Shown: positions 237 to 49,075, counted from the first letter of the stretch. The stretch is 64,000 bases of DNA from an uncultured Candidatus Saccharibacteria bacterium (GCA_964600295.1 CAZRIY010000001.1:169733-233732), one strand, 5' to 3'. A program made the numbers and translations. The notes: a model not told the origin generated them from the letters alone.

Positions 237-239
237 AAC

Positions 240-1009: not shown

Positions 1010-1128
1010 TTCTATCTTTCACTCATGCTTACCCAGATTGTACTAGGGGTAAAACGGTATTACAATATAGAGTGTCGCGCCACATAAAATGTTGATTTTG
1101 TATCAAGATTGTGGTATAAAAGGAGATT

Positions 1129-1842: not shown

Positions 1843-1914
1843 CTTTAAATAAGTCATTGTAGCAATCGCCACATATAGGGGAAATTCCCTAAAAGCTCAT
1901 GCTAAAATAAGCCC

Positions 1915-4566: not shown

Positions 4567-4574
4567 GAAGAAGT

Positions 4575-5417: not shown

Positions 5418-5485
5418 AGCAAATCTACCGCTTATTGACATAAGCGGTATCTGTTATACTTGGGGCAGATTTAGAAGGATAATTA

Positions 5486-6403
5486 ATGGCGCTTCAAGAA
5501 AAACAGCCCCAACAGTCTAATCCTGTACCCACTGCGGCCGGTGGACTCCTCCCCGTCCAGCCAACCTCGGTTAATCAAACTAACCCGGCGGTATCCCCGC
5601 CAATTCAGCCCAACCCCGCACCGCAAGCCAGCCCTAGCCTGGCTGAACCAACCAAGCTGCCGAAAGCCAAAAAAACCAAGACCAAAGGGGTTTCGACCCA
5701 AGGCGCCTTGTTGATTTCGGAGATTCGCGACGGCCTGGTGATCATGAAGGATGGCAGCTTGCGAGCGGTAGTAATGTGCCAGTCAATCAATTTTGACCTG
5801 ATGAGTCCGGCCGAACGCGAGGCCGTGGAGTTTACTTACCAAGGTTTTTTGAACGCACTTTATTTCCCGATTCAAATCTTCATCCGCTCCCAGCGGGTGG
5901 ACCTCAACAGCTACATTGACAAGCTGGAAGCAATTCATACCGGTCAAGAGAACATTCTACTATCGCTGTTGATGGAGGATTACATTGCCTATGTACGCTA
6001 CTTAGTGGAGGCTGCTAATGTTATGGACAAGCAGTTTTATGTGGTAGTACCCTACTATCCGCCGCTGACCTTACAGAAAGGGGGAATTTCCACGGGTATC
6101 CACCGGTTTACTTCCTTCTTGCGCCCCAAAACCGGCCCGATTGTGATCAACCAGGCTGATTACGCCCGTTTCAAAGCCGAGCTGACCCAGCGGGTACAGG
6201 CGGTTTTATCGGGATTGAATCAAATGGGTACCCAGGCCGTGCCCCTAAATACTCAGGAACTGATCGAGCTTTACTACACAGTCTATAATCCCCAGACGGC
6301 ACTGAGTCAACGCTTGACCGATGTTGATGATTTGGAAGCACAGATGGTGGAAAAAGGTCAGGGGCAGGCACCGCCGGTTTTGCACGGAGATAGTCAACTA
6401 TGA
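5486..6403 (+). CDS. VirB4/TrbE-family T4SS ATPase, N-terminal segment (ends at the in-frame TGA 6401..6403)
   Basis: After a Pro-rich low-complexity N-terminus comes DGLVIMKDGSLRAVVMCQSINFDLMSPAEREAVEFTYQGFLNALYFPIQIFIRSQRVD, resembling the CagE/TrbE/VirB4 N-terminal domain. It is in the same frame as the next ORF, separated only by TGA. Confidence 0.6.
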   Translation: MALQEKQPQQSNPVPTAAGGLLPVQPTSVNQTNPAVSPPIQPNPAPQASPSLAEPTKLPKAKKTKTKGVSTQGALLISEIRDGLVIMKDGSLRAVVMCQSINFDLMSPAEREAVEFTYQGFLNALYFPIQIFIRSQRVDLNSYIDKLEAIHTGQENILLSLLMEDYIAYVRYLVEAANVMDKQFYVVVPYYPPLTLQKGGISTGIHRFTSFLRPKTGPIVINQADYARFKAELTQRVQAVLSGLNQMGTQAVPLNTQELIELYYTVYNPQTALSQRLTDVDDLEAQMVEKGQGQAPPVLHGDSQL

Positions 6404-6406
6404 GGG

Positions 6407-8422: not shown

Positions 8423-8437
8423 CCTCCCAGCATCAAA

Positions 8438-11400
8438 ATGGCCAAAGCCACTCCCGAAGAGCAAACCGAAAAAGACCAGTTAGACCGCACTTATAGGGAG
8501 TCGTTGAGCCAAGAAGATGTCGAGAGTGGGGTCAAACAAGCTGAATCTCACGCCAACCAGAGTTTTTATAACAATGGAGGCCAACCAAAAGGCTCCCAGC
8601 CATTTGGTTGGGTTGGCCGCCATCGCAAAAAACTTGTCACTGGTGGGATATTGGGAGTGCTAACTGGTGGTGGCCTGATTGGGCTTTTTTCATTTCTGGC
8701 TCCCTTAAAATTGGATTTCTTGGGCAAGAATATCGAGCAGACTCAACTGGACCGTCTCGAGTACACCGTAAATGGTCGTAGCCAGCGTTTTATGTACCAC
8801 CTGATGATGGCGGAAATAGCCGGCAATAATGGGGGCGATCCTAGTAACAATCGTTACTTCCGCGCTAAGGGCTGGTATCTAAGCGGCAATCCCCTGACTC
8901 AGTGGTATAAGGATATCCGCACCGACAAGTTTTTTAATGTGATGGAGCAGAAATACGGAGTCATCTTCGCTGCCGAAAGTGGAAATGCTCGCGGCCACCT
9001 GCGCGCCATCACCACTATTGATATGCCAGAATCCAAGGTCGATAGCCTCAGGCAATTATTTAAAGATATTGATACACCGAATGGCATAGATGTTGCCAAA
9101 CTGAACGAATTTGAGGGTGCTGTAGTTAATGAATTTGATAATGACCGTGATGCACGCCGAATGATCAGAAGTTTTATCAAGGATGACTCCCATGCCTGGC
9201 AGGTTCTCAAGCGGCGGCATTTGCGGCGATGGGCAGGAGAGCGACTGGGCATCCGTCGTTGGCGTTTCTTCGAGGGCACCCGCGATAAAACCGGTAAATC
9301 AGTTCGCACGACTTGGAGTAAGCTCACCGGTAACACCATGACTGGCAAAATCATCGGCTGTATTTTTTCGTTCGCTCTTTGTCCGGTTGATTCCAATGAC
9401 CTAAACGATAATGACAACAAGGTTGAAAATGGTAACGACCCAAATACCCAGCGATCGGTAGACGATACAGAAACCGATATCGACGACGGACAAGAGCGTG
9501 CCAAAGGACAGCTTGGCAAAGCCGATGAACGCTCGAGGATTCAAAAGTTAATTTCTAGAAAACTGATAATTCTAAGGGGTGTGAATATCCTCGACTGGCT
9601 GAGAACTTTCATAGCTATTGATGATAATATTTCTAGTCGTAAATTGACCAAAATGGTAGCCATTTCTCGAGCCGCAGAATACGCAACGGCCTACATGACT
9701 TTCGTGACGTTAACAGATCATCTCAAGGAAGGCGAAACCGTCACTGGCGAAGAAGTAAATGCAGCTATGCAGATGTTTCAATGTAGCGAATTTAGCGAGG
9801 CATATCAGCATATGATGGCCAAGCAAAATAGTGGTTCTAAAACGGCCAATATCGGTGCAGTGTATGCCCAGCAGAAGCAGCGCACCACCAAAGAATGCCC
9901 CTACTATGAAGAGGTAACTGACGAGCTTAAAGTTAACGGCCATGGTAGCAACGCCGCTAAAATTGAGAAATGGTACAACGATACCATCGGTCCGGTTATT
10001 GGTGAGATCGTGGATGCTGTTCGTTTTCTTGTGGAAAATCCGGTAAGCGCGGCCATCTTAAGCGTACTCGACTCCATATTCAACTTCTTACTACAGGGAT
10101 TGTTGGTAATCGTTAACTTTATATGGGACGAATCTGAGGAAGCTATCAAGAAACTGCTCAACAAGCTGGGCGAGGAAGTTATCTCTGGGCTGGGTGGGGC
10201 ACCACAATGCACCGCCAATGAATCGGGCGGCCGTAAGGTCGGCTGCGCTATTGGCGGCGCAGCAGTTACCCAAGAACAGTATCTGGCCTCCATTGGCGGC
10301 ATGAACCTGACCGATGATCAAGTTAATGAAGTGAAGCAAAAGGTAGCCTTTGCCAAGCAGCAAGATAGAGCCGCTACCAGCTGGTGGCATAGGCTGGCTT
10401 CAACCGAAGATCCCAATTCCCTGCTGGCCAGAACCGCAATGCGCTTGCCCAGCAATACTTCCCAGCTAGCCAGCGAATTTAGCAATCTGGCTAGCAGCTT
10501 CACCCCAACCAGCCGACTAACCGCCTCGGGCCAAGCACTAGCTGCTACAATCAGCGATTCGGCGTTAGCGGTGCCAGACCCGGATGAAAATCTTTTCGGC
10601 GTCGAATATAAAGGCTTTCTCAATAAAACCATCGAGAAGTCGCTACCCTATGACGGTAAAGCTAAAGACAAAGCAGGCGAACAGGCGCTGCTGGACGCCA
10701 TTGCTGATGGCCGCATTAAGGCAGAGCCACCTGCCGGTAATTGTGAAGATGAAATGGCTGCCCACACCGCACAATTGGTAGGTGATGACGACATTAAGAC
10801 CGATGATGATGGGCCAACCATGATGAGTGTATGTAAACTTGATACGGCTATTAGTGAAGCCATGAAATCATTCTTTACCGAGGAAGATGATGGTGGCATT
10901 GGAACTTCAACAAGCATTGATGGCTCTGGAGAGACGGGTGTAAATGGACTCGAGTGCCCAGATAAATTACAGGAAAACCCAACCCATCCGGGCTACTATA
11001 AAATGCCCGAAGCGCCAAGTGGTGAGTACGTTATTTACTCTGTTGATGCCCGTAGATATGGAAGCAAAGAGTTAGTTTGCTCAATTTATACGGTAGCTCT
11101 GGCCTATAAGGATAAATACGGTAATAAATCAACTGTTAACGTCGGTGACCTTAACGGCGGATATCCGCACGCCAGCCACTATAAAGGCATTGCCGTTGAT
11201 ATAGATGCGCACGGCCAAATCTGTGCGGCTGACCATACCCATCCTACGCCAGGTGATGGATCGGGACTTTGCGGACCATATAACGCAGAAGCCACCGTCG
11301 ACCTTGGCAAAATGTGGATAGACACCGGTATTTTGCAGGATATATGGTGGTGCGAGAAACCAGGAGACGGATCAACCGAAGCCATTCGCATATATGGCGA

Positions 11401-11506
11401 ACAAAAGGGAAAACCGGTAAATATTAAGTGCCTGTCGGGCCATGATAACCATTTCCACGTTAATATCCAGGAGAAGTATGCCTTGCCTGGTTCATGGACA
11501 CCTTAG
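8438..11506 (+). CDS. Large membrane-anchored T4SS-associated protein with C-terminal LAS-family (peptidase M15/VanY-like) zinc-peptidase signature
   Basis: 1022 aa with one N-terminal TM (LVTGGILGVLTGGGLIGLFSFLAPL). An acidic low-complexity segment (DSNDLNDNDNKVENGNDPNTQRSVDDTETDIDDGQERAKG) sits at ~9380-9500, and a hydrophobic segment at ~residue 530. The C-terminal YPHASHYKGIAVDIDAHG (~11161..11215) matches the SxHxxGxAxD motif, and GHDNHFHV (~11438..11461) is a His-cluster. Confidence 0.5.
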   Translation: MAKATPEEQTEKDQLDRTYRESLSQEDVESGVKQAESHANQSFYNNGGQPKGSQPFGWVGRHRKKLVTGGILGVLTGGGLIGLFSFLAPLKLDFLGKNIEQTQLDRLEYTVNGRSQRFMYHLMMAEIAGNNGGDPSNNRYFRAKGWYLSGNPLTQWYKDIRTDKFFNVMEQKYGVIFAAESGNARGHLRAITTIDMPESKVDSLRQLFKDIDTPNGIDVAKLNEFEGAVVNEFDNDRDARRMIRSFIKDDSHAWQVLKRRHLRRWAGERLGIRRWRFFEGTRDKTGKSVRTTWSKLTGNTMTGKIIGCIFSFALCPVDSNDLNDNDNKVENGNDPNTQRSVDDTETDIDDGQERAKGQLGKADERSRIQKLISRKLIILRGVNILDWLRTFIAIDDNISSRKLTKMVAISRAAEYATAYMTFVTLTDHLKEGETVTGEEVNAAMQMFQCSEFSEAYQHMMAKQNSGSKTANIGAVYAQQKQRTTKECPYYEEVTDELKVNGHGSNAAKIEKWYNDTIGPVIGEIVDAVRFLVENPVSAAILSVLDSIFNFLLQGLLVIVNFIWDESEEAIKKLLNKLGEEVISGLGGAPQCTANESGGRKVGCAIGGAAVTQEQYLASIGGMNLTDDQVNEVKQKVAFAKQQDRAATSWWHRLASTEDPNSLLARTAMRLPSNTSQLASEFSNLASSFTPTSRLTASGQALAATISDSALAVPDPDENLFGVEYKGFLNKTIEKSLPYDGKAKDKAGEQALLDAIADGRIKAEPPAGNCEDEMAAHTAQLVGDDDIKTDDDGPTMMSVCKLDTAISEAMKSFFTEEDDGGIGTSTSIDGSGETGVNGLECPDKLQENPTHPGYYKMPEAPSGEYVIYSVDARRYGSKELVCSIYTVALAYKDKYGNKSTVNVGDLNGGYPHASHYKGIAVDIDAHGQICAADHTHPTPGDGSGLCGPYNAEATVDLGKMWIDTGILQDIWWCEKPGDGSTEAIRIYGEQKGKPVNIKCLSGHDNHFHVNIQEKYALPGSWTP

Positions 11507-11507
11507 G

Positions 11508-12719
11508 ATGAATTCCAAGACACTCGTGCAGCTAGGTCTCATGACCCTATTGTTGGGCTTACCCATGAAGTTGTTGGCAATCAGTTCCCCGGATCGTCAC
11601 TCGGTTATTTACGACACTGTTTATTACGATCCCACAGACGTTAGCCAAGAATGCAGTGGCGGCACGGACCAGCTATCCGAAGATACCGTTCCCCAACCTT
11701 ACAATGATTTGTTTGAAGAGGCAGCCGCTAAGTTTAAAACCGACGTGGCCTTGTTGGCTGCCATTTTTTGGGTAGAACACCACGGCATAGGGGCAAAATG
11801 GGACCCCAAGAGTTGGCCCGATCATAAGGGGCCTTGGGCTTCGTCGACCGTTGGAGCTTCTGGACCATTTCAATTCATGCCAGATACGTGGGGTTACCCA
11901 CCGGATTATACGCCCGGTTATGCCATTGATGGTGATAAGGATGGCGATAGAGAAATCCAGGACCTTACAGATTCAGCCTATAGTGCCGCAAACTATCTTT
12001 CCGCAAATGGCGGAAAAGTTGGCGCCGAGGTAGGCAACCCTGATCTTGATGTCCCCCAAAAACCTTCATTTAGCAACGCCATTTGGCATTACAATCATGA
12101 TCCTGCCTACGTCAAAACTGTTCTTGAAGCGCGTGAAGGAATTCTAAAGGGCGGAGGCGCGTCCGCGAGCGGTAGTAGCGGAACCTGTGCCACCGGCAAC
12201 TGGATTTGGCCGATCGCTAAGAAGGACTATCTGGGACTTTCAACCTGCTGGAATACATCCCGCATTCTCAATGGCAATAAGTACCACCACGGCGGCCTTG
12301 ATATATCGGCGGGCCGCGGTGTTGATGCTTTAGCGGCTGATGGGGGTACTATTGAAGAAGTGAATCTAGATGCGAGCAATGGCAACGGTATATATGTGGT
12401 GATAAAACATGGAGGTAAGTTCTGGTCGGTTTACAAACATTTGCTCGAAGCTAAGGTTAAGAAAGGGGATCAAGTTAACCAGGGTGATGTAATTGGTGCT
12501 GTTGATAGTACTGGCACCAGTACGGGCGATCACCTTCATTTCAATATCCAAGATCGAGGTGGAGTATCGGGCTCGGTAGAGGACGGAGGCACTCTGAACC
12601 CCTTAGACTACTTGCCCGAGGATGGACGCAACCTTGAAACTGGAAATCCCGACCTTGGTAAATGTATACCGGGCGACAAGGGTCAAACTGGTAATGGCAT
12701 TCAGGTAATTAATACATAG
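11508..12719 (+). CDS. CwlT-like bifunctional cell-wall hydrolase: lytic transglycosylase (SLT) + M23 (LytM) peptidase, secreted
   Basis: Signal peptide MNSKTLVQLGLMTLLLGLPMKLLA; start chosen at ATG 11508, 1 nt after the upstream stop (ORF track 11442 would overlap). SLT motifs AAIFWVEHHG, GASGPFQFMPDTWG and YSAANYLS. M23 motifs HHGGLDISAG and GDHLHFNIQ. Confidence 0.8.
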   Translation: MNSKTLVQLGLMTLLLGLPMKLLAISSPDRHSVIYDTVYYDPTDVSQECSGGTDQLSEDTVPQPYNDLFEEAAAKFKTDVALLAAIFWVEHHGIGAKWDPKSWPDHKGPWASSTVGASGPFQFMPDTWGYPPDYTPGYAIDGDKDGDREIQDLTDSAYSAANYLSANGGKVGAEVGNPDLDVPQKPSFSNAIWHYNHDPAYVKTVLEAREGILKGGGASASGSSGTCATGNWIWPIAKKDYLGLSTCWNTSRILNGNKYHHGGLDISAGRGVDALAADGGTIEEVNLDASNGNGIYVVIKHGGKFWSVYKHLLEAKVKKGDQVNQGDVIGAVDSTGTSTGDHLHFNIQDRGGVSGSVEDGGTLNPLDYLPEDGRNLETGNPDLGKCIPGDKGQTGNGIQVINT

Positions 12720-12727
12720 GAATATAG

Positions 12728-14152
12728 ATGCAAACAAGAACCAAGTTATTTTTACTAGCCATGTCAGCCTTGATACTTCTAATTGTTGGCTGGCAGTTGT
12801 TATCCACGGGTAAGGTCGAGGTCACCACTTCTCCTGGCGTCAGCAGTTCCTTTTCGATTCGGGATGAAACCGGTAAGACTATAGAAACAAAAAAAGGTAA
12901 AAGAATTGCTGAACGTTTGCGGCCTGGTGAGTACTCGGTAACAGCAGAGCACGACAAAGGCGCCACCAAACAATCGTTCACTATCAAGGCTCGCGATACC
13001 CTCAGTTTGGTCCTGAAGCTGGAGGAATTAAAAACGCCGGTTCTAATAACTGATCGGCCAGCAGTGGATATCCAGCTGGGAAGTGGACTGTTGTTTGTTG
13101 ATCCCACACTTGATAGGCTATTTCAACTCAAAGAAGGTAGCACCATACCCCAACCCCTCTTCGACACCGTGGACGCTCAGCGCATCGAATGGCTGGGCCA
13201 AGACAGCGGTTTGATCCAAACCACCGAGCGCAATGGCTACTATTTTGATGGCTCAATGATTCGTGACATTGGGCTGGTATCCGTTGAAGAAGAGGATCAA
13301 GTGATAATTAACGCCGTAAGTGCTGACCCGGGCTCGCGAAGCTTTGTTTACAGCTCTGCCAAAGAACTATTTATTAGCCGCAATCTTGCACCGCGCCAGC
13401 ATCTGCTTACCGTTGATAAGGAAAAACCATCATTGGCGTTAAAGGGTGGTAACTTGGCATTTTTCTACTACCCTGAAGGCTTCCCCGAATACACTACGCC
13501 AGAACCAGCCTTTGTATTTGATCTGACTAGCAGCACCAAGACTGAGATTGTTTCAGATCAATTAATATTTGATATTCATTGGTCGGCCAGCGGGGATAAA
13601 TTGATTTATGACACCCCAGAAAATCTATATATATACGACTATCAAGCCAGGCGCGTAATAAACCGCATTTCAAAAAATCTAAATGTTGCCGTTCCGGTTC
13701 TGTGGCTTAATGACGCGGACTTTTTGTATGGCGACGAGGGTGGAATTTGGCGTTTCGAATTAAATAGTTCGCAGGCTATCAAACTAGCAAATGCCAGTGG
13801 TGCGAATGAGGGGTTTGATATTGCCAGACGATTAGATTCAGACGAAATTTTCTTTAGTAATGGTGATTCCGCGAGTCCGGGTATTTATAAATTACTACTC
13901 GCCGGAGATATCCCTGAAAATACGAGGATCCTAGCTAAAATCCTCCCCTCCAGTACCGTGCAGTTTGAAATTAAGTATTCGGCCCTTGCCGAACCAGCTA
14001 CTGTACTAATCCAGACCTTTGTGGATCGGCGGCCTGGCACTACCCCGGCCGAATATCTGGCCAAGGCCGCAGAATACAAAAAGGCGGCCCTGGATTTTCT
14101 TCAGAGCCACGGCGTAGACACCTCAAAGATTAGAATCCATTATCTGGAATAG
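12728..14152 (+). CDS. Secreted/anchored hypothetical protein, possibly beta-propeller (TolB-like)
   Basis: 474 aa with N-terminal TM/signal (LFLLAMSALILLIVGWQLL). Last gene of the plus-strand T4SS block. No catalytic motif recognised. Confidence 0.4.
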   Translation: MQTRTKLFLLAMSALILLIVGWQLLSTGKVEVTTSPGVSSSFSIRDETGKTIETKKGKRIAERLRPGEYSVTAEHDKGATKQSFTIKARDTLSLVLKLEELKTPVLITDRPAVDIQLGSGLLFVDPTLDRLFQLKEGSTIPQPLFDTVDAQRIEWLGQDSGLIQTTERNGYYFDGSMIRDIGLVSVEEEDQVIINAVSADPGSRSFVYSSAKELFISRNLAPRQHLLTVDKEKPSLALKGGNLAFFYYPEGFPEYTTPEPAFVFDLTSSTKTEIVSDQLIFDIHWSASGDKLIYDTPENLYIYDYQARRVINRISKNLNVAVPVLWLNDADFLYGDEGGIWRFELNSSQAIKLANASGANEGFDIARRLDSDEIFFSNGDSASPGIYKLLLAGDIPENTRILAKILPSSTVQFEIKYSALAEPATVLIQTFVDRRPGTTPAEYLAKAAEYKKAALDFLQSHGVDTSKIRIHYLE

Positions 14153-14276
14153 CGGGGCCCCTAGAGGGTGGTGATTTGGATATGCAGCCGGTTTAGTTCG
14201 AGTCAAAGCGAGGACTGGTTTTGATTAAACCAATTATCACATTTTATGCGATCACGTAAATTCTGATAATTTCTAT

Positions 14277-14555
14277 CTATTCTAGTGTAGTTATCTGAAT
14301 ATGTAGTCTATGTATCGGCCGCGTAGAGGTTTGGACGCATTTGACGATTAGATCTTGCTGGCGCAGCCGCAGCTCGGAAGCTACTGCTGCGCTAGGAGTT
14401 ATAACCTTGAGTACGCCCTCATTGAGACTTTTGGCGCGGCATTGACCCGGGAATTCTTCTTCTAAAATCGATTGAATAATTTTGAGAGCATCGGCTCGTT
14501 CCAAATCGAGCTGTTGGGCCTTACGGGCTAAATAGAGTTTGGCATTCTCTAACAC
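14277..14555 (-). CDS. DUF721-family protein (recF-downstream small protein)
   Basis: 92 aa, located immediately downstream of recF as in the canonical dnaA-dnaN-recF-DUF721-gyrB arrangement. Confidence 0.55.
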   Translation of the reverse strand: MLENAKLYLARKAQQLDLERADALKIIQSILEEEFPGQCRAKSLNEGVLKVITPSAAVASELRLRQQDLIVKCVQTSTRPIHRLHIQITTLE

Positions 14556-14595
14556 CCCCTCAGTATGGTAAACCCCTCAACTCGGTGCAAGCCGG

Positions 14596-15645
14596 CTAGA
14601 GTTTGATCAATTGGTGCGGCTTTGGGAGTTGCTTGGTTAACCCCCGCTGATCGGTAGTGGTAATAATGGTTTGGACTTTATCCAATTTAGCCAACAGGCG
14701 CAGCCGGCGGGTCTGATCCAGCTCGCTGAAGACATCGTCCAGCAGCAACATCGGCTGCTTGTCCGTGTGCCGTTTTAACCATTGCAATTGGGCCAGTTTA
14801 AGGGCCAGCACCAGTGTGCGCACTTCGCCGCGGCTGGCCACCACAGCCGCCGGCTTATGACCTAGCGCCACCGCCACTTCATCGCGGTGGGGACCCAAGC
14901 TGGTAGCGCCAAAACGGATATCTCGTTGCAATTTTTGGTTTAGACCTTTGAGTAGTTGCTCGCTATATTCACCCTCCCCCAGACCGGTCTGGTAGGTAAG
15001 ATGCAGGGCTGGCTTGGCACCGGCCAGCTGCCGGTAAAGGCTGGGCAGGCGGCGGTTAACGTAGGCGATAAACTTAGCACGTAAATCCACTAGCTGGGCG
15101 GCTAGCTCTACCAAGGTGACGTCCCAGGCAAATACCTGGTCTTCAATGGCCGCTCGCTGTTTTTGGCGCAACAAGTGGTTGCGCTGATTGACCACGCGGC
15201 GGTAAGCCAGCAAATTTTGCCAGTACTGGGGGTGGCTCTGGATCAAGGTTTGGTTGAGCCAGCGCCGCCGCTCTTCCGGGGCGCCGTTGATAATTTTTAG
15301 GCTGTCGGGCTCAAACAACACCACCGGCAAGCTGCCTAGATAGGCTTCGGGCTTGATGTTGGTTTGGTTAACTTTTAGCCGTTTGCGACCACCAGTCGGA
15401 TAAACCAGCTCAATTGTGGTTTTGGCGGCGGCGCCCTCTAGTCGGTACCAATCGGCCGTGTGCCGGACCAGGTCGCGGTCCCGCGCCCGCCAGGACTTGG
15501 TAGTGGCCAAAACATAAAGCGATTCCAATAGATTGGTTTTGCCGGCGCCGTTGGCTCCTACCACTAGCGTGACACCAGGCGAAAAGGTAAAGACTTGTTG
15601 GCTATAAGAGCGAAAGTTGGCCAGTTTCAGGCTATCAATCGGCAT
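14596..15645 (-). CDS. recF: DNA replication and repair protein RecF
   Basis: N-terminus MPIDSLKLANFRSYSQQVFTFSPGVTLVVGANGAGKTNLLESL (Walker A) and the C-terminal ABC/SMC signature region. Position downstream of dnaN. Confidence 0.9.
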   Translation of the reverse strand: MPIDSLKLANFRSYSQQVFTFSPGVTLVVGANGAGKTNLLESLYVLATTKSWRARDRDLVRHTADWYRLEGAAAKTTIELVYPTGGRKRLKVNQTNIKPEAYLGSLPVVLFEPDSLKIINGAPEERRRWLNQTLIQSHPQYWQNLLAYRRVVNQRNHLLRQKQRAAIEDQVFAWDVTLVELAAQLVDLRAKFIAYVNRRLPSLYRQLAGAKPALHLTYQTGLGEGEYSEQLLKGLNQKLQRDIRFGATSLGPHRDEVAVALGHKPAAVVASRGEVRTLVLALKLAQLQWLKRHTDKQPMLLLDDVFSELDQTRRLRLLAKLDKVQTIITTTDQRGLTKQLPKPHQLIKL

Positions 15646-15662
15646 AGAACGGTGCGGCGAGC

Positions 15663-16766
15663 CTAGGAGCGCAGGGGCATAATGATGTGGAGATAGCTTT
15701 TGTCTTCGGTGGGACGTATGACTACTGGGTTAACTTTGCCGGATACAGCTAGTTTGATTTGGGGAGAATTAATCACACTGAGGGCGTCTCCCAAATAACG
15801 GTAATTCAGGGCTACTTGGGCGTCATCGCCGTTAATTTCAGCTTTGGTGTCGGAGACATTCTCGCCTACCTGAGAGGCTACCGAGCGCAGCCGTAAACTG
15901 GAGCTTTGGTTATCTACCTCAAGGGTAATGCTGCCGCCGCCGGTTTGGGCAAACAGCCCGGCCACTTTGGTTAGGTTGCCGAGTTCCGCCGTATCGACGG
16001 TGACGACCGTGGGAGAATCTTTGGGAATCAGGCTGCGGTAATCGGGAAACTGGCCGTCGATTAGCCGCGATATTAGCTCGATATTATCCAGTTTAAACAA
16101 GGCTTGGTTTTCTTCCACCACCACTTCCAGGGTTTCGCTGTCATCACCAATCATCCGCAACAGTTCTTGGATGGTGCGAGCCGGAACTATTAGGTTTATC
16201 TGGCCGGTCTGGCCTTTTTGGCGGGGAATGATTTTTTCTGCCAGGCGGTAGCTATCGGTAGCCACTATGACCAGGTTTGAACCCTCAGAGTATAGGTAAA
16301 CACCGCCCAACACCGGACGGGTGTCGTCGGTTGAGGCGGCCAGTACCACCACGCTAGCCGCGGCTTTAAAATCTTGGGCTGGCAAACTAAACAGGGCCGA
16401 TTTTTTGAGACTGGGAATTGAGGGAAATTCAGCGGCTTCAATGCCGTTAAAGGTCGATTGGTAGTGGTTGGTGGTAACTTTGAGGTTGGTTTTATCTAGT
16501 TCCAGGCTGACGGTATCGTCTGGCAGGTTACCAACAAACTCGGCTAGTAGTCTAGCCGGTACCGTGATGGCCCCAGCTTGATCAACTTTAGCCCCAATCC
16601 AATAATTAATACCGAGTTCAAGATTGGTGGTCGATAGTTTTAGACGCTTACCATCAGTAGCCACTAGAACGTGGGCCAATACCGGCAGTGTGGCCTGTGA
16701 TCCCACAATTCTACCTACCGCGCCCAGGGCTTTAGCCAAGTTGTCTTTGGTTGCGCTAACCTTCAT
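15663..16766 (-). CDS. dnaN: DNA polymerase III beta sliding clamp
   Basis: 367 aa; MKVSATKDNLAKALGAVGRIVGSQATLPVLAHVLV is a typical DnaN N-terminus. Located between dnaA and recF. Confidence 0.9.
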   Translation of the reverse strand: MKVSATKDNLAKALGAVGRIVGSQATLPVLAHVLVATDGKRLKLSTTNLELGINYWIGAKVDQAGAITVPARLLAEFVGNLPDDTVSLELDKTNLKVTTNHYQSTFNGIEAAEFPSIPSLKKSALFSLPAQDFKAAASVVVLAASTDDTRPVLGGVYLYSEGSNLVIVATDSYRLAEKIIPRQKGQTGQINLIVPARTIQELLRMIGDDSETLEVVVEENQALFKLDNIELISRLIDGQFPDYRSLIPKDSPTVVTVDTAELGNLTKVAGLFAQTGGGSITLEVDNQSSSLRLRSVASQVGENVSDTKAEINGDDAQVALNYRYLGDALSVINSPQIKLAVSGKVNPVVIRPTEDKSYLHIIMPLRS

Positions 16767-16992
16767 AACTATCTTCCCATATATATTAATTGGTGATAGT
16801 GATTAGTGTGGTGGAAAAAGCCGGCCCGATTGGTTGATTGCAGATCAACAGGAGTGGTTAAAAACCGGGGAAAAACCAAGAAAGACTGTGTAGAAAACCG
16901 GTGGTTTATCCACAACCCAGATTGATTAAATTTTTTTATCACTAGATTCTCCTTTTTTATCCCCAAATAATTCCCCGGCTCGTCCACAGCTT
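16767..16992. other. Candidate oriC segment (dnaA-dnaN intergenic): DnaA boxes plus AT-rich unwinding region
   Basis: Perfect TTATCCACA at 16906..16914. Box-like TTATCCCCA (~16955) and GTGGTGGAAAAA (~16811). AT-rich stretches at ~16785-16800 and ~16920-16960. Confidence 0.55.
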
Positions 16993-18339
16993 CTAAACAT
17001 ACAACTTCTCCTTCAACTCGTAAACCGAACGCCGTAAGTAATGGTTATTTAACAGCGAACGCTCAACTTTTTTGACCGAATGGATAGCCGTGGTGTGATC
17101 GGACCGCCCGACCTGGCGAGCAATCTGGGGGAAGCTCAATTCGAGCTCGGTTCGCATTAGATACATCGCCACCTGCCGCGGCTCGGCGATTTGCTTGTGG
17201 CGCTTAGGGCTTATCAATTCTTCTACCGTTAGATTAAAAAACCGCGCGGTTTTTTCCAATACGATCTGGGGGTTGATGCGCCGCCCCTTAATGGCCGGGG
17301 GACTAATCATTTGTTCCACTAGCTCTAAAGACGGCACCAAACCACGCATCTCGCAATGGGCAAACAGCTTAATTAGGGCACCTTCGAGCTCGCGGATATT
17401 GGACTGAATATGGGTAGCCAGATATTCGACGACATCGGCTGGCACGGTGCGGCGGGCTTGGGCAATCTTGGCCTGCAGAATAACCATGCGGGTTTCGTAA
17501 TCGGGCGGCTGGATATCGGCCGTCATACCGCCGTCAAAACGGGAGCGCAAACGTTCCTCTAGCGTCGGGATGGCCCCGGGGGGCTTATCACTAGAGATAA
17601 TAATTTGTTTGTTGGCCTCGTGCAGTGAATTAAAGATATGGAAAAATTCTTCTTGGGCCTTCTCCTTGCCGGCAATAAACTGCATATCATCAACAATTAA
17701 GACATCGGCTGTACGGTAGCGGCTGGAGAAGGTTTTTTTGGCCAAAATTGCAGCCACAAATTCCTTAAAAAACCGCTCGCAGGTGGCGTATTCCACCTTA
17801 GCGTGGGGGTTGGTGGCCAATACCGCGCCGCCCACCGCCTGGATTAAGTGGGTTTTACCCAGTCCTACGCCGCCGTAAATAAATAAGGGATTATATTTGT
17901 TACCCGGGGCTTGGGCTACCGCTCGGGCCGCGGCATAGGCCAAATCATTGCTGGACCCTACCACAAAAGTCTCAAAACTATAGCGGGGGTTTAAACCTGA
18001 GGAATTGGGTCGAAACATACCTTGGGCGGGCGGGGGAACAGACAGCGGCTGGGGTGGGTTGGCACCCTCGATCGGCTGCACGCGGTACTCAAGGGTTTGG
18101 ACCTTAATGCCGTTGCGACGCAAAGTTTTGATAAGCAGCGGGTGGAACTTGGCTTCAAATTGGCGTTTGACAAAAATGCTGGGCACACCAATGATTACCC
18201 GGCCACCAACGCTCTCTAGCAGCGCGGTATGCTTAAACCAAGTAGTAAAGTTGGCCGAAGATACCGACACCTCGATTTCGCCCAATACTGATTGCCATAA
18301 CACACTGGTTGTCACTGTCTCACTTTGTCCCTTTTCCAT
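16993..18339 (-). CDS. dnaA: Chromosomal replication initiator DnaA
   Basis: Walker A GGVGLGKTHLIQAVG; sensor DVLIVDDMQFIAGKEKAQEEFFHIFNSL; C-terminal DnaA-box binding domain. The track ORF extends to 18402; the likely start is the internal Met (MEKGQSETVTTSVLWQSVLGEI...) at 18339. Confidence 0.9.
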   Translation of the reverse strand: MEKGQSETVTTSVLWQSVLGEIEVSVSSANFTTWFKHTALLESVGGRVIIGVPSIFVKRQFEAKFHPLLIKTLRRNGIKVQTLEYRVQPIEGANPPQPLSVPPPAQGMFRPNSSGLNPRYSFETFVVGSSNDLAYAAARAVAQAPGNKYNPLFIYGGVGLGKTHLIQAVGGAVLATNPHAKVEYATCERFFKEFVAAILAKKTFSSRYRTADVLIVDDMQFIAGKEKAQEEFFHIFNSLHEANKQIIISSDKPPGAIPTLEERLRSRFDGGMTADIQPPDYETRMVILQAKIAQARRTVPADVVEYLATHIQSNIRELEGALIKLFAHCEMRGLVPSLELVEQMISPPAIKGRRINPQIVLEKTARFFNLTVEELISPKRHKQIAEPRQVAMYLMRTELELSFPQIARQVGRSDHTTAIHSVKKVERSLLNNHYLRRSVYELKEKLYV

Positions 18340-18402
18340 TACTATACTAGCCGCTGGGACAGCTTTCCACAACCCGGCTGCCGAAAGCCCCAACAAGCGC
18401 AA

Positions 18403-45457: not shown

Positions 45458-45532
45458 TCCGGAGTAGCTCAATGGTAGAGCACCGCCCTGTTAAGGCGAT
45501 GGTTGCCGGTTCGAGTCCGGCCTCCGGAGCCA
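45458..45532 (+). tRNA. tRNA-Asn (anticodon GTT)
   Basis: 75-nt cloverleaf: acceptor TCCGGAG/CTCCGGA, D-arm GCTCAATGGTAGAGC, anticodon loop CTGTTAA, T-arm GCCGGTTCGAGTCCGGC and encoded CCA. Confidence 0.85.
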
Positions 45533-45534
45533 TG

Positions 45535-45567
45535 AAAAAACGCTAGTCACATCGACTGGCGTTTTTT
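45535..45567 (+). terminator. Rho-independent (bidirectional-type) terminator hairpin after tRNA-Asn
   Basis: AAAAAACGCTAGTC-ACATC-GACTGGCGTTTTTT: a GC-rich stem flanked by an A-tract and a T-tract. Confidence 0.6.
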
Positions 45568-45652
45568 CATTAATTCGCAGTCTGCGAAACGAACCGAGCC
45601 CATAGGGCCGGTTCAGATAACAGCGGCTATATACTGAGCACAGCGAGGTAAT

Positions 45653-45671
45653 AGTCCGGCCTCCGGAGCCA
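45653..45671 (+). repeat. 19-nt direct repeat of the tRNA-Asn 3-prime end (att-like remnant)
   Basis: AGTCCGGCCTCCGGAGCCA at 45653..45671 is identical to tRNA positions 45514..45532. Confidence 0.7.
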
Positions 45672-45713
45672 AGCATGGCATGAGCTGCTGTGTTTATTTG
45701 ATACACTAAAACT

Positions 45714-45923
45714 ATGCAAAAGATAGCTACACGATTATTTATCTATTCGTCAATTGTTTTTGGTGTCCTAGGGCTTTTTATGGTTCTGACTGGGATCGAT
45801 CCGGATGAAAATAGCTCCGGCCTTGAGCTAGTCATAACGAAACTCTTTATGGCCACCATTTTTATCATCCTGCCTTCATTCGCATTAAGTGTTGCTAGTA
45901 AGTACTTAAACGGTAAATCTTAG
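45714..45923 (+). CDS. Small 2-TM membrane protein (cassette gene A)
   Basis: 69 aa MQKIATRLFIYSSIVFGVLGLF...ILPSFALSVASKYLNGKS. A paralog lies at 47133..47321. Confidence 0.5.
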   Translation: MQKIATRLFIYSSIVFGVLGLFMVLTGIDPDENSSGLELVITKLFMATIFIILPSFALSVASKYLNGKS

Positions 45924-45951
45924 TTCCAACTTCCTCCACTACGGGGAGCCA
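45924..45951 (+). repeat. Recurrent post-stop ~30-nt motif, copy A (TTCCAACTTCCTCCACTACGGGGAGCCA)
   Basis: Begins 1 nt after the TAG of gene A. Confidence 0.6.
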
Positions 45952-45990
45952 TAAAACTGGGTACGAGCAATTGAGGTATGATTCTTTTAG

Positions 45991-46155
45991 ATGAATAAAA
46001 GTAGAATAATATACTTCGTTCTCGCAATATTATTCGGAGTATTTATGTTTGTATATGGTGAAATTGATGATAGTCCCGGTGGGCAACTGCTCGGACTTCT
46101 CGCAGTCATTATCGGCATAATTGGCGTGATAAAGGGCACGAAGAATTCTGGCTAA
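45991..46155 (+). CDS. Small 2-TM membrane protein (54 aa), unannotated in ORF track
   Basis: ATG 45991 ... TAA 46153..46155 encodes MNKSRIIYFVLAILFGVFMFVYGEIDDSPGGQLLGLLAVIIGIIGVIKGTKNSG. It is followed immediately by the recurrent 30-nt motif. Confidence 0.35.
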   Translation: MNKSRIIYFVLAILFGVFMFVYGEIDDSPGGQLLGLLAVIIGIIGVIKGTKNSG

Positions 46156-46158
46156 ACA

Positions 46159-46188
46159 GGTTCTAACTTCCTCCACCACGGGGTGCTA
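46159..46188 (+). repeat. Recurrent post-stop motif, copy B (GGTTCTAACTTCCTCCACCACGGGGTGCTA), followed by the 12-nt palindrome GTGCTATAGCAC
   Basis: Begins 4 nt after the TAA of the 54-aa ORF. Confidence 0.6.
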
Positions 46189-46261
46189 TAGCACAAGTGC
46201 GGTTAAGAGCTTGATAAGGCATTCTTTGTTATGATTAATCTATGTAAATAAGGAGGATCGC

Positions 46262-46654
46262 ATGGCAGAAATAGAAGAAAACGTGAAGGAGACCGAAGTT
46301 TCCCAGCAGGGGGACACGCAAGTAGTGCGGCAACGCACCTCTACTGATTCAAGCCAAGATTCCCGTTTAACTCTTGCTAATGCTGTTTGGTTCCTACTCG
46401 GTGTGCTGGAGGTTTTGCTGGTCTTCCGGCTTTTTCTCAAGCTTTTCGGAGCCAATCCAGATAGTGGTTTTGTAAGCTTTGTTTACACAGTAACTAGCGG
46501 TTTTACAGCCCCTTTTAGGGGTATATTCAGTACGCCGACCACCCAGGGTGACATCACTACTTCGGTGTTCGAAACGGGTACCCTGCTGGCTATGATAGTT
46601 TACGCATTAATCGGCTGGGGACTAGTGAAACTAGTCAACCTAAATAAAAGATAA
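46262..46654 (+). CDS. YggT-like small membrane protein (cassette gene B)
   Basis: 130 aa; the FTAPFRGIFSTPTTQGDITTSVFETGTLLAMIVYAL segment resembles the YGGT-family core. Acidic N-terminal tail. GGAGG RBS upstream. A paralog lies at 47996..48388. Confidence 0.45.
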   Translation: MAEIEENVKETEVSQQGDTQVVRQRTSTDSSQDSRLTLANAVWFLLGVLEVLLVFRLFLKLFGANPDSGFVSFVYTVTSGFTAPFRGIFSTPTTQGDITTSVFETGTLLAMIVYALIGWGLVKLVNLNKR

Positions 46655-46686
46655 CCCCGTTCCTGAAAGTTCAATAGTACTAACGA

Positions 46687-46716
46687 AGTTCTAACTTCCT
46701 CCACTATGGGGAGCCA
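46687..46716 (+). repeat. Recurrent post-stop motif, copy C (AGTTCTAACTTCCTCCACTATGGGGAGCCA)
   Basis: Begins 33 nt after the stop of gene B. Confidence 0.6.
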
Positions 46717-46796
46717 AACTTCTGATGTTTTTAAACGCTAACAGTACAGCTTTACCAAAAATTTTCATTTGCAGGTAGGATAGCTAAAATAAACTT

Positions 46797-47108
46797 ATGG
46801 CCAAAAAAGAAATCGCTACTAGTGTGGTGCATAGAGTGCCAGCGGATTTGAGAAAGGTTTTGACATCTGCCCCCGAGGTGCGAGCAGCATGGGAGGATAT
46901 TACGCCACTCGCACGCAATGAGTGGATCTGCTGGGTCGTTTCCGTCAAGAAACCAGCGACGAGAAGTGACCATATCAAGAGGGTACGCACAGAACTTCTA
47001 GACGGAAAGCGCCGACCTTGTTGTTGGGCCGGCTGCATTCATCGCACGGACAAATCGATAAGCCCGTCGGTGCAGTGGGCGCTCAATAGACAACCTAAGT
47101 CCAAGTAG
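46797..47108 (+). CDS. YdeI/OmpD-associated (OmdA-like) family small protein
   Basis: 103 aa; ARNEWICWVVSVKKPATRSDHIKRVRTELLDGKRRPC resembles the OmdA domain. Inserted between the two copies of the duplicated cassette. Confidence 0.4.
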   Translation: MAKKEIATSVVHRVPADLRKVLTSAPEVRAAWEDITPLARNEWICWVVSVKKPATRSDHIKRVRTELLDGKRRPCCWAGCIHRTDKSISPSVQWALNRQPKSK

Positions 47109-47132
47109 CAACAAGCTTGTTATAATAAGCTC

Positions 47133-47321
47133 GTGCAAAAAATAGCTACACAAATATTTATCTACGCCTCAATTGCATTTGGAGTTTTGGGAGTTTTAGT
47201 TGCTCTGACGCAGCCTGATGAAAATGAAATACTTGCAAAACTTCTGTTTGCAACGGTTTTTATTATACTGTCCTCATTCGCATTAAGTGTTGCTAGTAAA
47301 TACTTAAACGGTAAATCATAG
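47133..47321 (+). CDS. Small 2-TM membrane protein (cassette gene A-prime, paralog of 45714..45923)
   Basis: 62 aa MQKIATQIFIYASIAFGVLGVLVALTQPDENEILAKLLFATVFIILSSFALSVASKYLNGKS. The C-terminal 20 aa are identical to gene A. Confidence 0.5.
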   Translation: MQKIATQIFIYASIAFGVLGVLVALTQPDENEILAKLLFATVFIILSSFALSVASKYLNGKS

Positions 47322-47327
47322 CATTAA

Positions 47328-47813
47328 ATGTCTATAAGCAAGGGGTCTAATAACATGAAAACTATCACGCCGAATCTATGGTTCGACGGCAAGGCAAAAG
47401 AGGCCGTGGATTTTTACATATCTGTGTTTCCAGACAGTAAAATAATCTCCACAATCAATTATCCAAACAGTGCCGAGGAAGGTTTGGCTGATTTCCAAAA
47501 GGACCTCGCTGGCAAAGTGCTCACGATAGACTTCGAGCTAAGCGGCAACCGTTTCGTGGCCATTAACGCTGGACCCGAGTTTAAATTTAACGAATCTGTG
47601 TCTTTTTCGATTCCTTGTGAAGATCAGGAAGAGATTGATTACTACTGGGAAAAACTTTCTAAAGTCCCGGAATCTGAACAATGTGGTTGGTGTAAAGACC
47701 AGTATGGCCTTAGCTGGCAAGTTGTACCGAAGCACATGGAAGAATTAATGAAGCGCCCGAATGCTTTTGCTAATTTGATGCAGATGCACAAAATTGTTAT
47801 TGAGGATTTTTAA
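47328..47813 (+). CDS. PhnB-like VOC/glyoxalase-fold protein (3-demethylubiquinone-9 3-methyltransferase domain family)
   Basis: ITPNLWFDGKAKEAVDFYISVF ... CGWCKDQYGLSWQVVP are hallmark motifs of the PhnB-like family. The likely start is the internal Met at 47355 (MKTITPNLWF). Confidence 0.65.
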   Translation: MSISKGSNNMKTITPNLWFDGKAKEAVDFYISVFPDSKIISTINYPNSAEEGLADFQKDLAGKVLTIDFELSGNRFVAINAGPEFKFNESVSFSIPCEDQEEIDYYWEKLSKVPESEQCGWCKDQYGLSWQVVPKHMEELMKRPNAFANLMQMHKIVIEDF

Positions 47814-47862
47814 GTTCGTTCACTATCAAGCGTTATCAAATCGCAGAGTAACCCATTAATGC

Positions 47863-47880
47863 GGTTCTAACCTGTCTACC
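47863..47880 (+). repeat. Recurrent motif, degenerate copy D (GGTTCTAACCTGTCTACC), followed by (GGCT)4
   Basis: Lies downstream of the PhnB-like gene stop. Confidence 0.4.
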
Positions 47881-47995
47881 GGCTGGCTGGCTGGCTTCCA
47901 TCACTAGGAGAGCCAAAATATTTACGCTTATTTTGCTGATATAATTAACCGTGAGCTTAGATCTAGTAAAATATCTCTAGAACAAGGAGGATCCC

Positions 47996-48388
47996 GTGGC
48001 AGAAATAGAAGAAAATGTAAAAGAAACCGAAGTTTCCCAGCAGGGCGACATGCAAGTAGTTCGAGAACGCACTTCCACTGATTCAAGCCAAGATACACGA
48101 TTGACTTTGGCTAATGCTGTTTGGTTTTTAGTTGGCTTGATGGAGTTTCTGTTGGCCTTTCGGCTTCTACTTAAGCTTCTTGGGGCCAATCCGTCCAGCG
48201 GTTTTGTAAGCTTTGTATATACAGTAACTAGCGGTTTCACCGCCCCTTTTAGAGGTATATTCAGTACGCCGACCACCCAGGGCGACATTACTACTTCGGT
48301 ATTCGAAACAGGCACCTTACTAGCTATGGTAGTCTACGCATTAGTCGGCTGGGGTGTAGTAAAACTCGTTAATCTCAATAAGAAATAA
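47996..48388 (+). CDS. YggT-like small membrane protein (cassette gene B-prime, paralog of 46262..46654)
   Basis: 130 aa, GTG start; about 85% identical to gene B (MAEIEENVKETEVSQQGD...). Confidence 0.45.
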   Translation: MAEIEENVKETEVSQQGDMQVVRERTSTDSSQDTRLTLANAVWFLVGLMEFLLAFRLLLKLLGANPSSGFVSFVYTVTSGFTAPFRGIFSTPTTQGDITTSVFETGTLLAMVVYALVGWGVVKLVNLNKK

Positions 48389-48419
48389 TTGCGTTACTAA
48401 AAATTCAACAGGGCTAACG

Positions 48420-48449
48420 GAGTTCTAACTTCCTTCACCATGCGGATCC
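48420..48449 (+). repeat. Recurrent post-stop motif, copy E (AGTTCTAACTTCCTTCACCATGCGGATCCA)
   Basis: Begins 32 nt after the stop of gene B-prime. Confidence 0.55.
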
Positions 48450-48460
48450 ATAACCCACGC

Positions 48461-49075
48461 TTATTCAGACAATTTTAGTGACGAGAAGAAAATCGTAAAA
48501 TCATCGTAATAGCGCTGATTATCAGAAGCCAAGCTTTGGCAGTAGGCAATCACCTGGTTAACGTTGCCCAGCGCTATTATTTCAACTCTTTTAATTTTTG
48601 AACCCCCTTCTGTATACAAGATTTCTAGTAGTATTCCTTGGGCTTCACCAAATTTTACGGGATTTAGGGCGGTTGACTCGTTGGCGACTACGGCATCTGG
48701 ATGAACCTTTCTCACCTCGTCCATAATTCCATTGCGTAACTCCTCACCCGTCGCAGATCCTCTCCCTGCCAACTTAGTCTGAGACACAATACATTGTGCG
48801 TTTGGGTCATCATTTGGCCTAAAACCATAAGTAAACCCCGGGTTCATGGCCGCCAGCTCTTCTCTGGGAATCGTCTCGAATTTCTTGCTCATGTTAAAAG
48901 AAAGGCCGGTTGAACTATCGGAAATTGTATTGTAATTAGTAGTTTGAGTTTCAGACTTATTTTCTGGAGCCTTATTAAAAGCACTAAACCAAACAGCTAG
49001 TGCAATAAGCACTAGCAAAAGAGCCAGGTATAAAAGCTTTCTTTTGGTCAAAATACTTCTGAGTACCTTTCGCAT
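48461..49075 (-). CDS. Hypothetical membrane-anchored/secreted protein
   Basis: 204 aa with N-terminal TM (LLYLALLLVLIALAVWFSAF); no recognised domain. Confidence 0.35.
   Translation of the reverse strand: MRKVLRSILTKRKLLYLALLLVLIALAVWFSAFNKAPENKSETQTTNYNTISDSSTGLSFNMSKKFETIPREELAAMNPGFTYGFRPNDDPNAQCIVSQTKLAGRGSATGEELRNGIMDEVRKVHPDAVVANESTALNPVKFGEAQGILLEILYTEGGSKIKRVEIIALGNVNQVIAYCQSLASDNQRYYDDFTIFFSSLKLSE

Follow-up and report, generated by a model that had tools for sequence, protein, structure and literature searches.

A tRNA-matched candidate recombination site bounding integrase-less gene cassettes in Patescibacteria

A motif of about 30 nt recurs behind successive small genes in a stretch of 64,000 nucleotides from an uncultured Candidatus Saccharibacteria bacterium (GCA_964600295.1 CAZRIY010000001.1:169733-233732; hereafter, the window), in an array that starts at a tRNA-Asn gene. 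From sequence comparison, we assign a probability of about 65% to the reading that this motif is a DNA recombination site bounding integrase-less cassettes at tRNA 3' ends, which would be moved by a recombinase acting in trans. The best explanation for each copy is that it represents the right-hand junction of a cassette, comparable with attC or attR, in an array for which the tRNA 3' end serves as dock. An initial annotation of this DNA had listed a recombination site delimiting mobile micro-cassettes as one option among several, and the comparative evidence supports that option; the annotation had overlooked both that the array is headed by a tRNA-Asn gene and that the last 6-8 nt of the motif match the 3' end of this tRNA.

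The site, its tail and its homology breakpoints

Four full copies of the motif lie on the + strand (A, 45922-45951; B, 46159-46188; C, 46687-46716; E, 48421-48450). They were located by a pattern search allowing up to 3 mismatches, which gave 0 matches in 100 shuffles, and they were scored at E = 2.5e-11 to 8.6e-9 by a sequence-only covariance model (R1) built on 41 copies drawn from many loci. A fifth copy, D, is split into GGTTCTAAC (47863-47871) and CTTCCATCACTAGGAGAGCCA (47895-47915) by a 23-nt G+C-rich insert (47872-47894), and model R1 found it as two half-matches (47860-47871 and 47895-47919); neither the pattern search nor the model yielded a copy beyond these five in the window. The claim that the motif recurs after the stop codons of successive small genes was borne out, with four full copies and one interrupted, all behind + strand genes. 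The gap of 1-35 nt that had been given between stop and motif holds for B, C and E (3, 32 and 32 nt) but not for A, which overlaps its TAG (gap 0), nor for D (50 nt). Since copies C and E close paralogous YGGT cassettes (84% identical), they are not independent, and the concern that the motif is only part of a duplicated segment does apply to this pair; copies A, B, C/E and D, however, lie in four unrelated sequence contexts, and the same arm was found at more than 40 other loci. The perfect 12-nt palindrome that had been reported after copy B is present at 46183-46194 (GTGCTATAGCAC); it results from two substitutions in the tail of B (GGGGAGCCA to GGGGTGCTA) and has no counterpart at any other copy. 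A split variant of the motif was also observed in several genomes (L182, about 3245-3295; L151, about 6533-6490 on the - strand; L180, about 92-150; loci are given by L numbers throughout), with a G+C-rich insert between GTTCTAAC and CTTCC...CCA whose length was measured in the window copy alone (23 nt).

The motif is bipartite, combining a near-invariant arm, GTTCTAACTTCCTCCACYA, with a tail that closes in CCA exactly 12 nt after the ...CAC of the arm. Across 49-50 unique copies, the near-invariant positions are an A at -6, an A at -1 and positions 1-19 (GTTCTAACTTCCTCCACYA); position 21 is mostly G, positions 22-26 are variable and positions 27-29 are CCA, a constant 12 nt separates ...CAC from the end of CCA, and no further family-wide conserved position was found among these copies. 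The last 6-8 nt of the tail copy the 3' end of the neighboring tRNA, and wherever a co-oriented tRNA gene lies 5' of an array, the variable tail is the 3' end of that tRNA. The pairs observed are as follows.

tRNA-Asn: tail GGAGCCA (window, L152, L173; near-match in L159/L171/L174)
tRNA-Gly: tail GCTCCA (L089)
tRNA-Leu: tail GCACCA+AA (L032/L143)
tRNA-Trp: tail TGCCA+A (L139)
tRNA-Trp: tail CTGCCAG (L156)
tRNA-His: tail GCCCCA (L161)
tRNA-His: tail ACCCCAA (L168)
tRNA-Arg: tail TGTACCA (L148, where the tRNA is not co-oriented)

The suffix identity between tails and the tRNA of their own locus averaged 6.0 nt, against 3.3 nt for mismatched pairs, which is essentially CCA alone (permutation p = 2e-5). 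Such a match, specific to the neighboring tRNA, is predicted by a DNA crossover core and not by an RNA or regulator function. In the window, the core is the 7-nt GGAGCCA, whose source is the 3' end of tRNA-Asn (...CCTCCGGAGCCA) and which is repeated at the ends of the motif copies.

Homology among arrays breaks at this same core. Loci L140, L144 and L149 have about 2 kb in common at 74-79% identity, and the similarity stops precisely with the final base of the core. Between L151 and L152, the motif and the next 67 nt are common at 98% identity, while the DNA upstream is unrelated, consisting of a Ham1 operon in one and of tRNA-Asn with a 75-amino-acid gene in the other. L059, a Saccharibacteria metagenome-assembled genome (MAG), and the unrelated array L162 share a cold-shock-protein cassette of roughly 500 bp at 86% identity; the homology spans from the preceding core (...ACCCCA) to the end of the next core, with both flanks unrelated. 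Because this homology runs from core to core, the exchange point is placed inside the 6-nt core. A further apparent junction, the breakpoint between L154 (about 10980) and L159 (about 403), was rejected; it is the left end of an IS1595-family element lying inside the first cassette after tRNA-Asn, and the two loci are otherwise 99.7% identical.

Gain or loss of cassettes between relatives, which had been suggested as a check, was observed at the locus of the window itself. Contig L182 comes from a related organism (its YGGT protein is 85% identical) and aligns with the tRNA-proximal remnant of the window, its positions 1-86 conserving a degenerate copy of the 19-nt tRNA repeat described below together with the preceding segment. 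After this stretch, the same tRNA-Asn locus is occupied in L182 by another set of cassettes, encoding a 113-amino-acid membrane protein, a 109-amino-acid protein that reads as cupin-like, MauE, a 234-amino-acid protein, an 82-amino-acid protein and YGGT, of which the YGGT cassette is the sole one common to the window. A motif copy lies behind each of the five + strand genes of L182 and a degenerate copy behind the 82-amino-acid gene, which is on the - strand. In other relatives the site is eroded, with decayed motif remnants behind the orthologs of the window 69-amino-acid gene in L177 and L184 and a decayed copy, ...CGTCCACTAGAGGGAGCCG, carried by the first gene after tRNA-Asn in L178. Decayed remnants behind orthologs suggest that gene and site are inherited together and that the site can erode.

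Full-length sites are confined to Patescibacteria as far as named genomes among the matches listed are concerned. The genome scan covered one genome per species (596 Gb) with the pattern GTTCNAACTTCCTNCAC, whose listed matches were mostly due to chance, the true ones being sorted afterwards. Among the matches listed (118, seeded by a 17-mer), the full-length site was present in six MAGs, labeled as Patescibacteria group (three), Candidatus Saccharibacteria (two) and Candidatus Peribacteria (one), several of which hold two or three copies apiece; no full-length match outside Patescibacteria was seen there in a named genome. Of 38 loci obtained with a 19-mer in a metagenome scan, about 36 are true family members, with a G+C content of 30-49%, while viral contigs (2.9 million), phage records (50,697) and plasmid records (72,556) gave chance matches only. 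Three motif-like copies in Sphingomonas oligophenolica (L116, 4451-7987) are - strand coding sequence (LLGVVEEVRTF) and were judged chance at 23.7 bits. These copies occupy the C-terminus of an open reading frame (ORF) that appears to encode a large serine recombinase, and two displaced C-terminal gene fragments, as if the 3' end of a recombinase gene had received insertions in tandem. A description of the site was not found in the open-access full-text literature, a scope outside which most subscription journals lie, and the motif string occurred there only in an unrelated E2F1 breast-cancer paper.

The units between junctions are small (n = 42; median 700 bp, interquartile range 484-1201, full range 184-4026), and a co-oriented ORF stops within 150 nt upstream in 50 of 57 copies, compared with 41% of random positions. 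Their cargo comprises small membrane proteins, YGGT, OmdA, PhnB-like proteins, heliorhodopsin, cold-shock protein, Ham1, NUDIX and GIY-YIG proteins, methyltransferases, kinases and an IS1595 transposase. The heliorhodopsin gene (168-884) lies between two motif copies in L184 (55-933) and is hence cassette-borne, with AGGTTAGAAC, an inverted arm, after the second core. Many cassettes open with a terminator hairpin and a -10-like box directly after the core, so that the tRNA or the upstream cassette would regain a terminator from an incoming cassette; direct reading also gave several cassettes -10 or extended -10 boxes of their own, and a promoter and terminator consensus scan of the window array performed no better than on shuffles.

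The tRNA-Asn array in the window

The array lies directly 3' of tRNA-Asn, in the same orientation, and its features are given below, all on the + strand.

45458..45532, +: tRNA-Asn(GTT) gene, the head of the array (ARAGORN; Rfam tRNA, 71 bits; sequence)
45532..45570, +: terminator-like hairpin and T-run abutting tRNA-Asn (inverted repeat with 17-nt arms, 94% complementary)
45653..45671, +: exact 19-nt repeat of the tRNA-Asn 3' end, AGTCCGGCCTCCGGAGCCA (direct repeat)
45672..45951, +: cassette 1, 69-amino-acid membrane protein gene (45714-45923) and copy A (45922-45951)
45952..46188, +: cassette 2, 54-amino-acid ORF (45991-46155) and copy B (46159-46188), with the tail mutated to GGGGTGCTA
46189..46716, +: cassette 3, YGGT-family gene (46262-46654; Pfam YGGT) and copy C (46687-46716), the consensus copy
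46717..47915, +: cassette 4, OmdA/YdeI gene (46797-47108), 62-amino-acid gene (47133-47321), PhnB-like 3-dmu-9_3-mt gene (47355-47813) and copy D (Pfam; repeats; half-matches)
47916..48450, +: cassette 5, second YGGT gene (47996-48388) and copy E (48421-48450)

The motif copies are spaced at 237, 528, 1199 and 535 nt, with genes in between, and copy E forms the final junction of the array, being followed by a convergent gene (48461-49075, - strand). The 19-nt repeat, placed 139 bp downstream of the tRNA, is a classical att-type duplication, and the array proper begins after it. Between the tRNA and the repeat, the stretch 45533-45652 is devoid of genes and contains, besides the tRNA terminator, another hairpin, GAACCGAGCCC-ATA-GGGCCGGTTC (about 45584-45607); this segment may be what is left of a different integrative element, or else an insert of minimal size. 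Cassette 3 has homologs in cassette 5 and in L182 (2738-3295), and the 62-amino-acid gene of cassette 4 is a paralog of the 69-amino-acid gene of cassette 1. Because OmdA forms a single-gene cassette in L151, with a degenerate motif copy of its own behind it, cassette 4 probably represents three cassettes fused after loss of their sites.

At the same kind of locus in other genomes, small genes that appear GIY-YIG-like by eye lie beside tRNA-Asn (L151, 7535-7798; L155, about 1200-1420; L152, upstream of 541). Genes of this type also occur in cassettes that close with a longer tRNA-Asn fragment (9-17 nt) and not with the GTTCTAAC arm, and these longer-fragment endings are a second junction class at the same tRNA-Asn hot spot. 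The surroundings of the array in the window are chromosomal, including recF-dnaN at 14.6-16.8 kb, type IV secretion system (T4SS)-like genes and polysaccharide genes. Within 1129-18402, recF and dnaN come after the T4SS-like genes (PrgI, TrsD/TraD-like, an M23/SLT hydrolase); the adjoining 469-amino-acid ORF (16993-18402) is probably dnaA, in which case the window would adjoin the chromosomal replication origin.

Proposed mechanism and alternative explanations

In the mechanism we propose, the arm, (A-N4-A)GTTCTAACTTCCTCCACYA-Y-G, would presumably be bound by a site-specific recombinase, and strand exchange would take place in a core of 6-8 nt whose sequence equals that of the local tRNA's final bases (here GGAGCCA) and which lies at a fixed distance from the arm. 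A free cassette would consist of the arm, the core and its own beginning, in many cases a terminator with a promoter after it. It would insert by recombination with the core at the tRNA end, at a displaced tRNA fragment or at another junction, restoring the tRNA end and leaving arm and core at the cassette's distal end, and repeated insertion would let the array grow. The identity block of 6-8 bp is compatible with a tyrosine-recombinase overlap region; a block of this kind would also arise if restoration of the tRNA end were under selection.

Several observations on the enzyme and on the site weigh against this reading. No recombinase was detected among the 37 ORFs of the window searched with Pfam, NCBIfam and PHROGs (all of 43.6-51 kb included), nor in 21 ORFs from arrays L140, L144, L149, L151, L139, L154, L161 and L059, and all-versus-all clustering of ORFs from 45 loci revealed no protein family common to the arrays. 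Three conserved proteins next to the motif in L140, L144 and L149 had no match in Pfam, PHROGs or NCBIfam. Because none was found in the window or in these arrays, the recombinase would have to act in trans, and we infer its involvement, as we do a free (circular) form of the cassette. No excised or circular form and no occupied-versus-empty pair between near-identical genomes was seen, and the core has no universal conserved binding site on its right-hand side. In 5 of 53 copies, where 0.56 would be expected, an inverted GTTAGAAC comes after the core, at +3 or about +48; it is found behind tRNA-Asn in L173 and tRNA-Trp in L156 as well, but this is a minority feature, and the longer inverted arm GGAAGTTAGAAC was not enriched.

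Other points against it concern the loci themselves. The window and L182 have the 139-bp remnant beside the tRNA in common and differ in their distal cassettes, which places turnover at the displaced tRNA fragment or at internal junctions and not at the tRNA itself. The YGGT, OmdA and 69-amino-acid genes lie near tRNA-Asn in several relatives with the motif decayed or absent, so at least some arrays are old and static. In L107, the tails match tRNA-Trp, yet the neighboring gene is tRNA-Glu, and in L148 and L146/L163 the arrays are head-to-head with the tRNA. L107 (1791-4972 and 6033-6108) is part of a complete Saccharibacteria chromosome, and its three tails, reading GCCCCTGCCA / GCAA, match a tRNA-Trp of another locus over 10 nt. 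The tail in L148 (943-1809) is an exact 7-nt match to Arg, and that in L146 (1104-2137) is a looser match to Asn; inversion or a cassette-borne tRNA could explain both head-to-head arrangements.

An unlikely alternative, though the best of the others, is that the copies are scars (attR plus cargo) of larger integrase-bearing islands or prophages, belonging to one widespread Patescibacteria element family, that integrated serially and then decayed, the apparent cassettes being deletion remnants. These tRNAs have received conventional insertions, as shown by classical tRNA-fragment repeats at their loci, of 19 nt in the window and of 30 nt and 9-17 nt in L151 and L155. Multi-gene units as long as 4 kb, a block of 2 kb or more that closes in the motif in L140, L144 and L149, and the existence of decayed motif copies also favor this alternative. 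Decay of this kind, however, has to be reconciled with an integrase or integrase fragment in 0 of 42 units, a median unit of 700 bp and smallest units of 184-295 bp. Random deletion is also not expected to leave a motif-adjacent gene that is nearly always co-oriented and ends within tens of nucleotides, and further evidence on the same side comes from the single-gene cassette common core-to-core to two arrays (L059, L162) and from the absence of the motif from viral contigs, phage records and plasmid records.

We regard as improbable the proposal that the motif serves as portable short homology for RecA-dependent exchange after natural transformation, with no dedicated recombinase. Saccharibacteria are naturally competent, and the failure to find a recombinase would be explained; the motif and its downstream flank are homogenized within arrays, near-identical post-core sequences occur in L161, L162 and L182, and the 97 nt at 98% identity between L151 and L152, inside DNA of 68% identity, resemble gene conversion. 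This proposal leaves unexplained why the tail is retuned to each tRNA, why the arm, unlike its flanks, is invariant across lineages of about 30-50% G+C, and why breakpoints fall within the 6-nt core rather than anywhere along 30 nt, a length that is itself very short for RecA-mediated exchange.

A function at the RNA level, whether in 3' untranslated region (UTR) stability, processing or termination, in mimicry of a tRNA end with CCA, or as a regulator site for the upstream gene, appears very unlikely. The position just after a co-oriented stop, the CCA end as in tRNA and an anti-Shine-Dalgarno-like CCUCC inside the motif would suit it. Folding, however, gave z-scores of -0.3 to +0.5 against shuffled controls, RNAalifold returned 0 pairs and no covariation on 41 copies, and no Rfam family matched the motif. 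The 4-bp CTCC...GGAG hairpin described in the initial annotation does exist, but it is restricted to tRNA-Asn-type tails and is not family-wide. None of the five window copies has a terminator-like site or a stable fold, which agrees with the annotation that the motif is not an obvious intrinsic terminator and leaves its suggested likeness to terminator elements unsupported, as are its options of a 3'-UTR or RNA-stability element and of a regulator site. The terminator lies upstream of the motif in the L059/L162 cassette and downstream of it in L089 and L161, homology breakpoints coincide with the site, and orthologous genes manage without the motif; nor does an RNA function predict that the tail copies only 3-5 specific bases of the adjacent tRNA gene. 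A selfish short repeat of the repetitive extragenic palindromic (REP) or miniature inverted-repeat transposable element (MITE) type, or a DNA uptake sequence spreading into intergenic regions, would also be short, intergenic and post-stop, and is nonetheless so improbable as to be set aside given five copies per 64 kb in a single 2.5-kb array on a single strand, the lack of a palindrome and a tail that depends on the adjacent tRNA.

Further candidate classes were rejected on the structure of the site. A tRNA or tRNA-like 3' half is suggested by GTTCTAAC, which is T-loop-like, but this has no T-stem partner, the CCA is 5 nt too far away, and ARAGORN and Rfam were negative. At a site of the large-serine-recombinase type, the central crossover would fall at YAYG, where the tRNA has no identity, and an Xer/dif-type site (integrative mobile elements exploiting Xer, IMEX; pdif), which has 28 nt with two inverted arms of roughly 11 nt about a 6-nt spacer, was rejected because the two halves of the motif have no dyad symmetry. 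REP elements, bacterial interspersed mosaic elements (BIMEs) and MITEs do not agree with five copies in one cluster, on one strand and devoid of a palindrome, and the REP likeness raised previously fails since the motif is confined to one array and has no hairpin. An array of clustered regularly interspaced short palindromic repeats (CRISPR) was dismissed on the irregular spacings listed above, with genes between the copies.

Returning to the recombination site reading, its broadest form is that the Patescibacteria, also known as the candidate phyla radiation (CPR), own an integron-analogous platform in which tRNA 3' ends serve as docks, a universal arm of about 20 nt is combined with a swappable overlap of 6-8 nt, and a possibly novel recombinase acting in trans would shuffle single genes between arrays and lineages, the observed cargo including membrane proteins, heliorhodopsin, a cold-shock protein and enzymes of nucleotide sanitization and detoxification. 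We put this forward tentatively, at slightly less than even odds. These bacteria have tiny genomes and an epibiotic lifestyle, and little is understood of the ways in which they acquire and exchange accessory genes. A site defined by its sequence, which marks cassette boundaries in Saccharibacteria, Peribacteria and other Patescibacteria and is retargetable to different tRNA genes, would offer a searchable handle on their flexible gene pool. Such a site would likewise be a lead to a recombinase of unusual modular site logic, a constant arm with a programmable core, that could become a genetic tool now that some Saccharibacteria are tractable.

Comparison with known systems

Islands that target tRNAs, of the Islander type or built from tycheposons, have in common with the arrays a variable region that grows beside a tRNA gene, junctions marked by direct repeats of the tRNA 3' end, newer insertions alongside older ones, and a streamlined genome. 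A tRNA location with a displaced 3' fragment, as used to recognize Islander-type islands, was found here in tRNA-Asn with its 19-nt repeat and in the core of 6-8 nt at each copy; unlike those islands, the arrays examined hold no integrase of their own. Tycheposons of Prochlorococcus carry their own integrase at one end together with hallmark replication and mobility genes, and their att sites comprise about 40 nt of partial tRNA (bioRxiv 10.1101/2020.12.28.424599). The arrays described here differ in having neither integrase nor hallmark genes, in that only 6-8 nt of the site are tRNA-derived, in unit sizes of 0.2-4 kb and in one non-tRNA arm common to cassettes at no fewer than six tRNA species.

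Cis-mobilizable elements (CIMEs) and integrase-less satellites, which accrete in arrays at one att site, are att-bounded, lack their own recombination genes and are presumably moved by an enzyme encoded elsewhere; known CIMEs are decayed integrative and conjugative elements of several kb, each specific for a single att site. The cassettes resemble them in their att-type bounds and in the lack of recombination genes in the units, and differ from them in using a single arm for many tRNA targets across a superphylum and in being gene-sized.

The arrays also resemble integrons, with which they have in common mostly single-gene, co-oriented cassettes (here with a median of 700 bp), a recombination site at the cassette end that starts at or soon after the stop, cassette content that varies among relatives at one fixed dock, and fused cassettes where a site has been lost. 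The arm start GTTCTAAC is reminiscent of what we take to be the attC R'' box, RYYYAAC, which serves as a lead only. Membership among integrons nevertheless fails because there is no IntI, no attC palindrome and a site conserved in sequence. The search for an integron-type integrase that had been proposed found none among the 37 window ORFs, and no intI lies beside the array. In integrons, promoterless cassettes are expressed from a Pc promoter at attI; here a tRNA end takes the place of an attI next to intI. Whereas attC sites span 57-141 nt and conserve a structure (R''-L''...L'-R'), the present site is conserved in sequence, with 19 near-invariant bases and neither palindrome nor fold, its inverted GTTAGAAC partner being limited to 5 of 53 copies; attC was rejected as a class on these grounds, and with it the likeness to attC proposed in the initial annotation. 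Additionally, the crossover core is retuned to each tRNA, and the cassettes seem to carry their own promoters and often a terminator. If the recombination site reading is right, it would extend the integron concept of cassette arrays at a fixed dock to another type of dock and another type of cassette site.

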